Shown piece after piece: positions 6,505 through 9,034 of a stretch of DNA of 16,600 nt. Under the pieces are notes generated by a model. It did not search any database, had not been told where the DNA came from, and worked only from the letters and a program-made list of their open reading frames with translations. Where the stretch lies: IMG/VR virus record IMGVR_UViG_2654587792_000017. One strand, given 5' to 3'. The stretch is from a virus (taxonomy: Duplodnaviria; Heunggongvirae; Uroviricota; Caudoviricetes). The position numbers were made by a program, and so were the translations under genes. Within the stretch, counting starts at the first letter, position 1; each line of letters begins with the position of its first letter.

Positions 6505-7814
6505 GAGAGGCGGGCTGGACCAGCCTGTTTCAGGCGGTGGCTGAGCCCTTTTCCGGCGCCTGGCAGCAGGGCGTGAAAGCCGATCCTGAAGCCGTCCTCT
6601 CCTTTCATGCGGTGTTTGCATGTATTTCGCTGATATCCCAGGATATCGCCAAAATGCGGCTGCGTCTTATGCAGACGGATGCGCATGGGATACGCAGGGA
6701 AACGCGCCGGGGGGATATTGCCCGCCTCTGTCGTCGTCCCAACGCCCAGCAGAACCGCATCCAGTTTTTTGAACTGTGGCTGAACGCCAAACTGCGTCAT
6801 GGCAATACGGTGGTGCTGAAAATCCGTAATGCCCGGGGGCAGATCAAAGAACTGCGTATTCTGGACTGGAGCCGGGTTGAACCTCTGGTGGCGGATGACG
6901 GCGAGGTGTTCTACCGCATCACGCCGGACCGGAACTGCGGGATCACGGAGGCGGTGACGGTGCCTGCCCGGGAAGTGATCCACGACCGGTTTAACTGTTT
7001 TTTTCATCCGCTTATAGGATTGCCGCCGGTGTATGCCGCCGGGCTGGCGGCCACGCAGGGGCATCATATTCAGGAAAATTCGACGTCTTTTTTCAGAAAT
7101 GGCGGCAGGCCGTCCGGGGTGATTGAGATCCCCGGCAGTATTACGGAAGAAAATGCGAAAAAACTGAAGAGCAACTGGGACAGCGGGTATACAGGCGAAA
7201 ATGCGGGGAAAACGGCCATTCTGAGCAACGGGGCAAAATACAACCCCACGACGTTTTCACCTGTGGATGCGCAGACGGTGGAACAACTGAAGATGACCGC
7301 TGAAATTGTCTGTTCGGTGTTCCGTGTCCCGGCCTACAAGATTGGCGTTGGCCAGCCACCTTCCAGTGACAACGTGGAGGCGCTGGAGCAGCAGTATTAT
7401 TCCCAGTGCCTGCAGACGCTGATTGAGTCCATTGAACTGTTACTGGATGAGGCGCTGGAAACGGGGGAAAACGAGAGTACGGAGTTTGACGTCACCACAC
7501 TGCTGAGAATGGACAGCGAACGGCGCATGAAAACGCTGGGTGAGTCGGTGAAAAATACGCTTCTCACGCCCAATGAGGCCCGTAAACGTGAGAACCTGCC
7601 GCCCCTTGCGGGAGGTGATGCACTGTATCTTCAGCAGCAGAACTACAGTCTGGAGGCGCTGTCCCGTCGTGATGCCCGTGAAGATCCGTTCGCGTCGACC
7701 GGGAAAACGGCCTTAGCGCAACTGCCTGACGGCGCATCTGACGGTAATAAGGCAATCAGTGAAACAGAGCATGGTGCGTTGAAAGCGATGTTGAGGGGGA
7801 TACTGCGAAAATGA
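6450..7814 (+). CDS. Portal protein (HK97 family)
   Basis: 454 aa, GGAG 10 nt upstream of the ATG. Portal-family regions include FFRNGGRPSGVIEIPGSITEENAKKLKSNWDSGYTGENAGKTAILSNGAKYNP and the coiled-coil-like EALEQQYYSQCLQTLIESIELLLDEA. The stop overlaps the next start (ATGA). Confidence 0.85.
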   Translation: MWNLLRRTRKNQKSGRDVREAGWTSLFQAVAEPFSGAWQQGVKADPEAVLSFHAVFACISLISQDIAKMRLRLMQTDAHGIRRETRRGDIARLCRRPNAQQNRIQFFELWLNAKLRHGNTVVLKIRNARGQIKELRILDWSRVEPLVADDGEVFYRITPDRNCGITEAVTVPAREVIHDRFNCFFHPLIGLPPVYAAGLAATQGHHIQENSTSFFRNGGRPSGVIEIPGSITEENAKKLKSNWDSGYTGENAGKTAILSNGAKYNPTTFSPVDAQTVEQLKMTAEIVCSVFRVPAYKIGVGQPPSSDNVEALEQQYYSQCLQTLIESIELLLDEALETGENESTEFDVTTLLRMDSERRMKTLGESVKNTLLTPNEARKRENLPPLAGGDALYLQQQNYSLEALSRRDAREDPFASTGKTALAQLPDGASDGNKAISETEHGALKAMLRGILRK

Positions 7815-9034
7815 CGGAACGGGAACTGTCCATTATTCGTGCACTGGGCGAAGAATTCGCCACGGTGCTGGCGGATTTACAGCACACATTTGAGGAGAAG
7901 ATGGCCGCGCAGGCACAAGCGTTTGAAGAGAAACTGGCTTCCCTGTCGGCGGTATTACAGAAGCATGTGACGGTGGATGAGGTACATCCGGTTCTGCAGG
8001 CGATGGTGGATGACGCTGTGGGGACCATTCCGGTACCGCGTGATGGTCGTGATTATGATCCGGATGTACTGCAGCAGGCGGTGAATGATGCGGTTGCGAA
8101 TATTCCGGTACCGGCGGACGGCAAAAGTATCACCCCCGATGATGTGCGTCCGATGCTTGAGCAGATGGTGAAAGAGGCTGTAAGCCATATCCCTGCTCCG
8201 CGTGACGGTCGTGATTATGATCCGGATGTACTGCAGCAGGCGGTGAATGATGCGGTTGCGAATATTCCGGTACCGGCGGACGGCAAAAGTATCACCCCCG
8301 ATGATGTGCGTCCGATGCTTGAGCAGATGGTGAAAGAGGCCGTAAGCCATATCCCTGCTCCGCGTGACGGTCGTGATTATGATCCGGATGTACTGCAGCA
8401 GGCGGTGAATGATGCGGTTGCGAATATTCCGGTACCGGCGGACGGCAAAAGTATCACCCCCGATGATGTGCGTCCGATGCTTGAGCAGATGGTGAAAGAG
8501 GCCGTAAGCCATATCCCTGCTCCGCGTGATGGTCGTGATTACGATCCGGAAGTACTGAAGCAGGCGGTTCTGGAGGCGGTGAATGCCCTGCCGGCTCCGC
8601 AGGACGGGCGTGATGCCACGGCACTGGAAGTGCTCCCCGCCATTGACGATCAAAAATCCTTTCCCCGGGGCACGTATGCCACACACCTTGGAGGACTCTG
8701 GCGGGCGTATGAAAAAACGCACGGGATGCGGGGATGGGAATGCCTGGTTGACGGGGTGGCGGATATTGACGTCAGTATGACGGGTGAGCGGTTGTTCTCT
8801 GTGGTGATCCGGCAGAGCAGTGGCCAGTGTACGGAAAAAACATTTTCCCTGCCGGTGATGCTCTACCGCGGAGTGTTCAGAGCCGGTGAAACCTACCACC
8901 CCGGCGATACGGTGACGTGGGGGGGCTCGCTGTGGCACTGCAACAGTATGACCGCCGATAAACCGGGGGATGCGCATGCATCTGGCTGGACGCTGGCTGC
9001 CAAACGGGGACGGGATGCTGGAGGCGGAAAATGA
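7811..9034 (+). CDS. Repeat-containing head-region protein of unknown function (possible head decoration or fibre protein)
   Basis: 407 aa: a coiled-coil-like N-terminus, then ~8 copies of a 27-aa motif IPxPxDG(R/K)xxxPDxV...V organised as three near-identical 54-aa units, then a C-terminal domain (GDTVTWGGSLWHCN). Translationally coupled to both portal and connector genes (ATGA overlaps at each end). I do not recognise the family. Confidence 0.7.
   Translation: MTERELSIIRALGEEFATVLADLQHTFEEKMAAQAQAFEEKLASLSAVLQKHVTVDEVHPVLQAMVDDAVGTIPVPRDGRDYDPDVLQQAVNDAVANIPVPADGKSITPDDVRPMLEQMVKEAVSHIPAPRDGRDYDPDVLQQAVNDAVANIPVPADGKSITPDDVRPMLEQMVKEAVSHIPAPRDGRDYDPDVLQQAVNDAVANIPVPADGKSITPDDVRPMLEQMVKEAVSHIPAPRDGRDYDPEVLKQAVLEAVNALPAPQDGRDATALEVLPAIDDQKSFPRGTYATHLGGLWRAYEKTHGMRGWECLVDGVADIDVSMTGERLFSVVIRQSSGQCTEKTFSLPVMLYRGVFRAGETYHPGDTVTWGGSLWHCNSMTADKPGDAHASGWTLAAKRGRDAGGGK
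8039..8580 (+). repeat. Tandem 162-bp repeats (three nearly identical copies plus a diverged fourth) inside the CDS 7811..9034
   Basis: Units start at 8039, 8201, 8363 and 8525. Units 1-3 differ by only 1-2 nt over 162 bp; the fourth is partial and diverged. The repeats are in frame, 54 aa each. Confidence 0.9.

Follow-up and report, generated by a model that had tools for sequence, protein, structure and literature searches.

The closest described systems are head and neck components of phages, namely the fibritin (wac) whiskers of T4 and the gp8.5 head fibres of phi29, the minor head proteins SPP1 gp7 and Mu F, the C-terminal barrel of P22-type portals, and the collagen-like head or fibre proteins that include SPP1 gp12. 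SPP1 gp7 and Mu F are internal and, in other phages, are encoded directly after the portal; MuF proteins are sometimes fused to it. SPP1 gp12 binds capsid hexamers in many copies. Here we compare with these systems a repeat-containing open reading frame (ORF) of a virus of the Caudoviricetes (IMG/VR record IMGVR_UViG_2654587792_000017), for which we use the working name X. The whole stretch analysed, hereafter the window, is 16,600 nucleotides long and represents the late (morphogenesis) region of a lambdoid, long-tailed Escherichia coli prophage; X occupies positions 7811–9034, between the genes of the portal and of the head–tail adaptor Ad1. Sequence comparisons indicate that X is an independent, ancestrally separate gene, neither a pseudogene nor the product of a programmed frameshift, and its predicted architecture suggests a variant of phage fibre-like accessory structural protein.

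Comparison of X with described systems

Like T4 fibritin and phi29 gp8.5, X is predicted to be an elongated oligomer that attaches by its N-terminal end, has a repetitive stalk and carries a small folded domain at its C-terminus, and it is likely an accessory protein. The order X–Ad1–head closure protein, with X directly before the neck and adaptor genes, is analogous to T4 wac-13-14. However, X has no sequence or fold match to either protein. In contrast to the continuous coiled coil of fibritin, its stalk is formed by helix-loop [ILV]PxPxDG modules, or by collagen-like repeats, and its C-terminal domain is of the CBM5/12 type rather than a foldon.

As with SPP1 gp7 and Mu gpF, X is encoded right after the portal, is sometimes fused to it, and is expected to have a low copy number and to associate with the portal, but it lacks a Phage_Mu_F match and its predicted architecture is completely different. 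Unlike the P22-type portal barrel, X is natively separate and ends in a β domain; the match of its single helix is generic, with no evidence of a 12-helix barrel. The CBM5/12 domain resembles those of chitinase B, ChiC, phage fibre proteins and All3316, but the version in X scores below the Pfam cut-off and is embedded in a larger, family-specific β domain. Relatives of X carry Gly-X-Y (GXY) runs, as do SPP1 gp12 and other collagen-like phage proteins, whereas X of the window has helical modules in place of such a run, and X is linked to the portal vertex. X is unusual in that its helix-loop stalk is interchangeable with collagen-like repeats, its gene keeps a fixed slot between those of the portal and the adaptor, and one base toggles it to a portal fusion.

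X is encoded separately from the portal

The features of X and of the genes that flank it are as follows (aa, amino acids).

6450–7814, + strand: portal gene, 454 aa, complete and of the HK97 family (PF04860 and TIGR01537)
7795–7799, + strand: G5 tract in the codons AGG GGG (Arg-Gly), from a junction alignment of the window and loci L001–L005
7811–7814, + strand: ATGA overlap of portal stop and X start, translational coupling
7811–9034, + strand: gene X, 407 aa, ATG start; equivalent to ECs_1975 (Sakai Sp10) and ORF59 (BP-4795)
7817–7960, + strand: long N-terminal α-helix, aa 3–50 (AlphaFold2, pLDDT 89–96)
7973–8587, + strand: stalk of nine helices and eight [ILV]PxPxDG loops, aa 55–259 (AlphaFold2, pLDDT 55–80)
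8036–8568, + strand: near-identical 162-bp tandem array, the unit of copy-number change
8624–9010, + strand: conserved C-terminal β domain, aa 272–400 (pLDDT 95–98), in which nearly invariant residues cluster
8861–9004, + strand: CBM5/12 (chitin-binding type 3)-like sub-domain, aa ~351–398, from structural superposition
9031–9034, + strand: ATGA overlap of X stop and Ad1 start
9031–9357, + strand: head–tail connector/adaptor Ad1, 108 aa (PF05135, E 1.1e-7; phrog_40 Ad1)

The overlaps at both ends of X agree with the initial annotation, which placed the gene between portal and connector and proposed translational coupling to both. X lies directly downstream of the portal gene in the window and in relatives that include FSL SP-016, PAJU2 and IME307. 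The portal ORF is complete by itself, covering positions 2–321 of 321 in PF04860 (E 5.6e-81) and 2–343 of 343 in TIGR01537 portal_HK97 (E 2.5e-105), and profile searches found no match of X to either model. An 11-mer, GAAAATGACGG, occurs at both ATGA junctions (7807–7817 and 9027–9037; 2 matches vs 0.02 expected by chance), and recombination between its two copies would excise X precisely and bring the portal into coupling with Ad1. As a cassette boundary the 11-mer was dropped, since in distant relatives only the ATGA overlap is conserved.

Two ORFs with overlapping stop and start are found in every distant relative reached: Salmonella phage FSL SP-016, Pseudomonas phages PAJU2 and IME307, genomes of Phytobacter, Citrobacter and Enterobacter, an enterobacterial-like metagenome-assembled genome, Mesorhizobium, and three metagenomic phages with a collagen-type X. 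Their portals measure 452–475 aa, with X in a different frame, and an overlap of the form ATGA or TGATG has been kept by the relatives from Salmonella, Phytobacter, Citrobacter, Enterobacter and Mesorhizobium and by PAJU2. The Arg-Gly codons read AGA GGA or similar in the Salmonella, Citrobacter and Enterobacter relatives, and the Pseudomonas sequence at this point is unrelated; the slippery site is thus not conserved, the G run being absent from all distant relatives compared. Because all of these relatives keep separate overlapping ORFs without the G run, the split state is taken as ancestral.

In prophage Sp10 of E. coli O157:H7 Sakai the two genes are likewise split, as ECs_1974 (454 aa) and ECs_1975 (407 aa). 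Sp10 matches window positions 1207–16600 with 95.8–96.4% identity over the whole morphogenesis region; the identity of about 96% spans 12 kb. In Sp10 the portal was scored '+' and all morphogenesis genes as conserved, and the prophage was packaged and transferred to K-12 (Asadulghani et al., PMC2669165).

The codon positions of variable sites among alleles are distributed 14/8/52 in the C-terminal 435 nucleotides (nt) and 25/19/43 in the N-terminal 225 nt. This third-position excess identifies the sense frame as the coding one and indicates, at the level of sequence, that X is under purifying selection. An antisense ORF of 364 aa (7955–9049, minus strand) was rejected, as its first codon position is the most variable one (the sense third); it stays open only because the repeat unit has no stops in that frame.

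A single-base difference and fusion to the portal

The portal–X junction was compared in 123 sequences, comprising 117 IMG/VR stretches obtained by a junction-sequence scan, five RefSeq loci and the window, with X translated in each. A G5 tract leaves portal and X as separate ORFs, and a G6 tract joins them into a single ORF of 859–861 aa; 81 of the 123 junctions are G5 and 42 are G6, so that about one third of the E. coli relatives are fused. In the window the portal ends in the C-terminal tail ...ALKAMLRGILRK. Strain E2348/69, with a one-base difference from the window, reads GGGGGG, and its portal frame runs through ...RGDTEKMTERELS... into X; the locus is annotated there as a single, intact portal gene of 2,586 bp. 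A neighbour-joining tree built from 1,130 bp of the flanks requires at least 10 switches between G5 and G6, and one haplotype of these flanks, identical over the 1,130 bp, is found with either state. Phage 2851, which we take to be an infectious Stx2c phage, has the fused form, although its record may contain a homopolymer sequencing error.

A further protein, P0351 (1,237 aa, source unknown), has a portal domain and, after it, about 20 modules of LPEPEPLPDI plus a helix and then the conserved C-terminal domain. Its junction is unlike the G6 fusion of E. coli, and represents either an independent fusion or an assembly error. Among the ten long X representatives scanned, it is the only one listed with a portal domain apart from P0065, a partial E. 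coli cluster representative of 613 aa that belongs to the fused G6 lineage.

The fused alleles account for the names under which X is filed: it is labelled 'portal' or 'frameshifted portal' because G6 alleles join it to the portal ORF. RefSeq merges portal and X into one pseudogene, 'phage portal protein, frameshifted', in the nearest genome and others (L001, L003, L004 and L005), and the 859-position 'portal' profile of PHROG 2271 matches the portal ORF at positions 1–451 and X at 455–859. From these sequence comparisons, the G6 fusion is a tolerated derived variant of E. coli lineages and not the native state, and G5 alleles are wrongly labelled as a 'frameshifted pseudogene'. Pipelines that judge prophage intactness could, by this label, wrongly score such prophages as defective.

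The two junction states might instead reflect a regulated switch, in which the G tract would act as a programmed frameshift or phase-variable site that yields a short and an X-extended portal. Both tract lengths are common among close relatives (81 vs 42), a polymorphism expected of a contingency locus; the repeated switches and the shared flank haplotype fit this view, and a −1 slip on G GGG G would yield exactly the fused protein. However, distant relatives read AGA GGA and keep separate ORFs, with no conserved slippery site or stimulator, which argues against the programmed frameshift; five to six G are short for a contingency locus, typical tracts being longer; and some G5/G6 differences may be homopolymer sequencing errors. 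A switch of this kind is therefore very improbable. Hardly credible, in turn, is the reading implied by RefSeq, that the window holds a frameshifted and inactivated long portal gene. The label given to the same arrangement by the Prokaryotic Genome Annotation Pipeline (PGAP) and the phrog_2271 profile, which spans both ORFs, would be in line with it, but the split ATGA layout is the ancestral one, kept from Enterobacteria through to Pseudomonas and Mesorhizobium, the portal ORF by itself encodes a complete portal, X is under purifying selection, and the split-type Sp10 is packaged and transferable.

The repeat array varies by whole 162-bp units

Tandem Repeats Finder reports a period of 162 bp at 8036–8568, with 3.3 copies, 98% matches, no indels and a score of 1024; the array is in frame with X. 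The units starting at 8201 and 8363 are 100% identical and the unit at 8039 departs from them in two of its 162 bases. Overall identity falls to 53% in the fourth unit (8525), of which the first 81 bp are 73–74% identical and the remainder is unrelated. The program and the unit-by-unit comparison thus confirm the three near-identical units and diverged fourth described from the sequence. Each unit does encode two sub-repeats, as had been proposed, but they measure 25 aa (IPxPRDGRDYDPDVLQQAVNDAVAN) and 29 aa (IPVPADGKSITPDDVRPMLEQMVKEAVSH) rather than 27 aa each. Every sub-repeat consists of an [ILV]PxPxDG loop followed by a helix, and X contains eight such motifs when the diverged flanking copies are included. 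In the structural model the 54-aa unit corresponds to one short and one long helix, and for this reason 162 bp, and not 81 bp, is the unit of change.

Among the 81 full-length copies of X in the junction set, the length classes are 245 (2 copies), 299 (4), 353 (18), 405 (11), 407 (37), 461 (7), 515 (1) and 569 aa (1). With the exception of the 405-aa class, these lengths are separated by steps of 54 aa (162 bp). The version in BP-4795 has 461 aa, and matches to X of 1224, 1062 and 900 bp occur in complete E. coli genomes and phage records. Unit-to-unit identity within one array ranges from 0.86 to 1.00 across 62 distinct alleles, of which the window allele is among the most homogeneous. Given these length classes and the spread of within-array identity, the sequences indicate that the arrays are repeatedly expanded, contracted and homogenised. 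The ongoing copy-number change suspected from the near-identity of the units is accordingly borne out by homologues of 245–569 aa that differ by whole 162-bp units, in complete genomes as well; repeat number varies across related prophages.

In the protein database, homologues are mostly entered as 'partial' portal proteins, on contigs of about 2 kb, which is consistent with short-read assemblies that break in or near X. Repeat counts from short reads are unreliable at this locus, which could serve as a typing marker in long-read data.

Predicted structure of X

An AlphaFold2 monomer model of X based on an alignment of 104 sequences has a mean predicted local distance difference test (pLDDT) of 79.7 and a predicted template modelling score (pTM) of 0.39; with an alignment of 24 sequences, the mean pLDDT was 43.5. 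The model consists of a long N-terminal helix, a stalk and a C-terminal β domain. Hydrophobic residues in the 48-residue N-terminal helix (aa 3–50) are spaced every 3–4 positions, and the helix is probably a coiled coil and the attachment end of the modelled protein. The stalk shows weak profile similarity to designed helical-repeat proteins. In about 149 representative relatives, 40 have collagen-like runs (at least six GXY triplets) located in the stalk, in place of or alongside helix-loop modules; the X protein of the window has no such run. By analogy, the collagen-like stretches of these relatives imply trimers.

Conservation within the family is highest in the C-terminal domain, across hosts from E. 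coli to alphaproteobacteria, and the N-terminal region differs between enterobacterial and Pseudomonas members. The last ~50 residues superimpose on ChiC of Streptomyces griseus with a deviation of 2.3 Å over 47 columns, and on All3316, a baseplate protein of the Anabaena contractile injection system, with 1.4 Å over 50 columns; the modelled C-terminus of X has the CBM5/12 fold. PF02839 (CBM_5_12) and Pfam Collagen (PF01391) are precomputed on many relatives of X. The FSL SP-016 homologue scores 23.1 bits for PF02839, also below the 26.2-bit cut-off. A C-terminal module of about 155 residues is common to phage proteins that are named collagen triple helix repeat, ChiC_BD, CBM5/12, pectinesterase or ConA-lectin in BFVD, and several of the proteins that share it exceed 900 aa and resemble fibre or tailspike proteins. 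In the PDB the module is shared with phage fibre proteins and with the baseplate protein of a contractile injection system. The suggestion that X might be a head fibre thus fits, as to its fibre-like nature, the predicted architecture and the collagen-like relatives.

The X family and its annotation

The X family comprises 5,539 clusters (50% identity) at E ≤1e-3 and 640 at E ≤1e-30 in a HMMER search of 1.84 billion cluster representatives, with lengths from ~120 aa (fragments) to 1,237 aa. The initial annotation could not assign X to a known family. Remote-homology search and structure prediction now place it in a very large one, filed as 'portal protein' by PHROGs and RefSeq, and provide the helix, stalk and β-domain model; the G5/G6 polymorphism had been missed. 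Searches of local libraries found no Pfam or NCBIfam model above threshold for X or for three distant homologues, and accession PF28083.1 is precomputed on close homologues in the protein database. By sequence or profile, X has no match in the PDB beyond designed helical repeats (compositional) and CBM5/12 domains. TetR_C_35, FliG_N, Mre11 and the designed helical repeats were rejected as sub-threshold or compositional matches in the Pfam, NCBIfam and PDB searches. Phage_Mu_F (PF04233) gave no match in X at E up to 0.1, and profile and PDB searches revealed no similarity to MuF/gp7 or to known ejection proteins.

Sequences of X are already in databases under a wrong or empty name (ECs_1975 and ORF59 of BP-4795), and the Pseudomonas homologues are all stand-alone 'hypothetical proteins'. 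We found no functional or structural work on the family in the literature. Distant collagen-type members retain the order protease–capsid fusion, small ORF, portal, X, Ad1 and head closure protein. In one relative, L136, X is separated from the portal by two inserted genes but still overlaps the start of Ad1. Family matches filed under 'portal protein' are found in vB_OsaM_PD0307, named as a myovirus, and in a Rhizobium phage, and an EBPR phage was also matched. This synteny and the range of hosts and phages matched indicate that X travels with the head–neck module and not with the tail type. A family of at least 5,500 clusters, misleadingly named, is tied to one position in a head module that is very common among phages; carriers of the module include many prophages of enterohaemorrhagic and enteropathogenic E. 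coli (EHEC/EPEC), Stx1 and Stx2c phages among them, and D3-like phages of Pseudomonas.

Location and role of X

We tentatively favour a reading, drawn from the model and from analogy, of X as an elongated, probably trimeric, low-copy external fibre of the neck or collar at the portal/neck vertex. X would be translated by coupling from the portal gene and be itself coupled to the Ad1 gene. Its N-terminal coiled-coil helix would be the attachment end at the vertex, followed by a stalk of 54-aa two-helix units whose number shifts by unequal recombination or slippage between the near-identical 162-bp units, so that stalk length could vary between otherwise similar phages with the fold kept intact. 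The C-terminal CBM5/12-type β domain would form a distal knob that nucleates oligomerisation and/or binds a putative glycan, and the fibre would stand outside the capsid, like the whiskers of T4. The G5 to G6 mutation of some E. coli lineages joins X to the portal C-terminus.

We lean to the exterior because collagen-like stalks and terminal modules with CBM5/12 domains are features of external phage fibres, because the order X–Ad1–head closure mirrors wac-13-14, and because X stays with Ad1 where it is parted from the portal (L136). Coupling to the portal and Ad1, both 12-copy ring proteins, together with the portal fusion, argues for a low copy number. A decoration protein present in hundreds of copies on the shell, the other role that had been put forward for X, fits poorly with this coupling and with a tolerated fusion. 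We infer trimerisation, virion membership, location at the vertex, exterior placement and glycan binding alike.

Several observations weigh against this external fibre. In all solved portals, to our knowledge, the C-terminus faces the capsid interior, and X is fused to this end in about one third of the E. coli relatives, in phage 2851 and in P0351. A protein fused in this way cannot be an external fibre, and exterior placement therefore requires that the fused forms lack X function or are processed. Conservation of the C-terminal domain across hosts is atypical for a receptor-binding tip, PF02839 scores 18.6 bits in X against a cut-off of 26.2, and the stalk is modelled with only moderate confidence, the pTM of the model being 0.39. 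In the literature and the PDB we found no virion proteomics or structure of any member of the X family; the literature on virion proteomics for PAJU2, D3-like phages, YA3 and AH14a gave only phages with unrelated head modules, and that for FSL SP-016 and 2851 nothing useful.

In the main alternative X would be internal, with its N-terminal helix tethered to the portal crown inside the capsid in no more than 12 copies, as a portal barrel encoded apart from the portal or as an ejection or pilot protein that exits via the tail. Recurrent and persistent fusion to the portal C-terminus, coupling consistent with a 1:1 ratio, and the position of the gene in the post-portal slot of SPP1 gp7 and Mu F all agree with this; a variable N-terminal region and a conserved C-terminal domain fit a lineage-specific dock and a universal ligand, the stalk would be free to vary in length, a stalk that is thin and either helical or collagen-like would be suited to pass through the tail, and the glycan backbone of peptidoglycan could be the ligand of the CBM5/12-type domain. 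Nevertheless, external fibres are where collagen-like repeats and CBM5/12 modules otherwise occur, X of L136 remains with Ad1 and not with the portal, similarity to MuF/gp7 or known ejection proteins is lacking, and the fused state is derived, is confined to E. coli lineages and one further protein, and might be neutral where the prophage is defective. We consider the internal location possible, if somewhat unlikely. Within it, a more specific proposal is doubtful: that X extends the portal crown as a detachable piece of adjustable length, a portal barrel or ejection fibre kept as a separate gene at 1:1 with the portal, which a single-G change could convert into a covalent fusion and which gain or loss of 162-bp units could retune in length. 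We know of no HK97-type siphophage that carries ejection proteins in its head, and with a crown extension of this kind these phages would gain an internal head protein of a new class. An assembly factor absent from the mature virion is decidedly improbable; it would act like a scaffold or chaperone in helping to nucleate or close the portal vertex, after which the prohead protease would remove or degrade it. X does resemble scaffolding proteins in its long, helical N-terminal part with its abundance of E, K, A and Q, a separate scaffold gene is missing from the phage, in which protease and capsid protein are fused, and X lies between portal and adaptor; but a strongly conserved, folded CBM-type β domain and collagen-like relatives are not scaffold features, and in HK97-type heads it is normally the N-terminal region of the capsid protein that serves as the scaffold.

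Either as a neck fibre or as an internal portal-bound fibre, X would be an added component of the HK97-type virion and a natural example of a stalk whose length is tuned by the gain and loss of units. For phage structural biology the result is a useful correction and a testable lead, and it would be surprising only if the internal model were true.

Neighbouring genes

The remaining genes of the window are arranged as follows.

2040–2579: small terminase
2576–4237: large terminase
4301–6238: prohead protease and major capsid protein, fused
6283–6504: ORF of 73 aa
9368–9718: head closure protein
further downstream of the head closure protein: tail genes

The usual gene order in HK97 is portal, protease and capsid, and the order in the window is reversed, with the fusion of capsid and S78 protease (645 aa, 4301–6238) upstream of the portal gene (6450–7814). 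This layout with the capsid before the portal is also present in D3-like phages of Pseudomonas and in metagenomic relatives. The 73-aa ORF overlaps the portal start by 55 nt and is hypothetical in relatives; a small ORF recurs ahead of the portal in distant phages, and one of these carries a Pfam E3_binding match.

In X-bearing relatives of the Pseudomonas type and from metagenomes, glycosyltransferase and methyltransferase genes lie within the head–neck–tail module (L127, 6080–8023; L136, 7716–9693; L135, 10055–10588), where they may act in the glycosylation of virion proteins. The E. coli window has no such glycosyltransferase or methyltransferase genes. In the tail region of the window, a pair of ORFs for tail assembly chaperones (11252–11674 and 11698–11979), a kind of pair usually linked by a −1 frameshift, lies upstream of the tape measure gene, and is annotated in RefSeq as a chaperone and 'protein T'.

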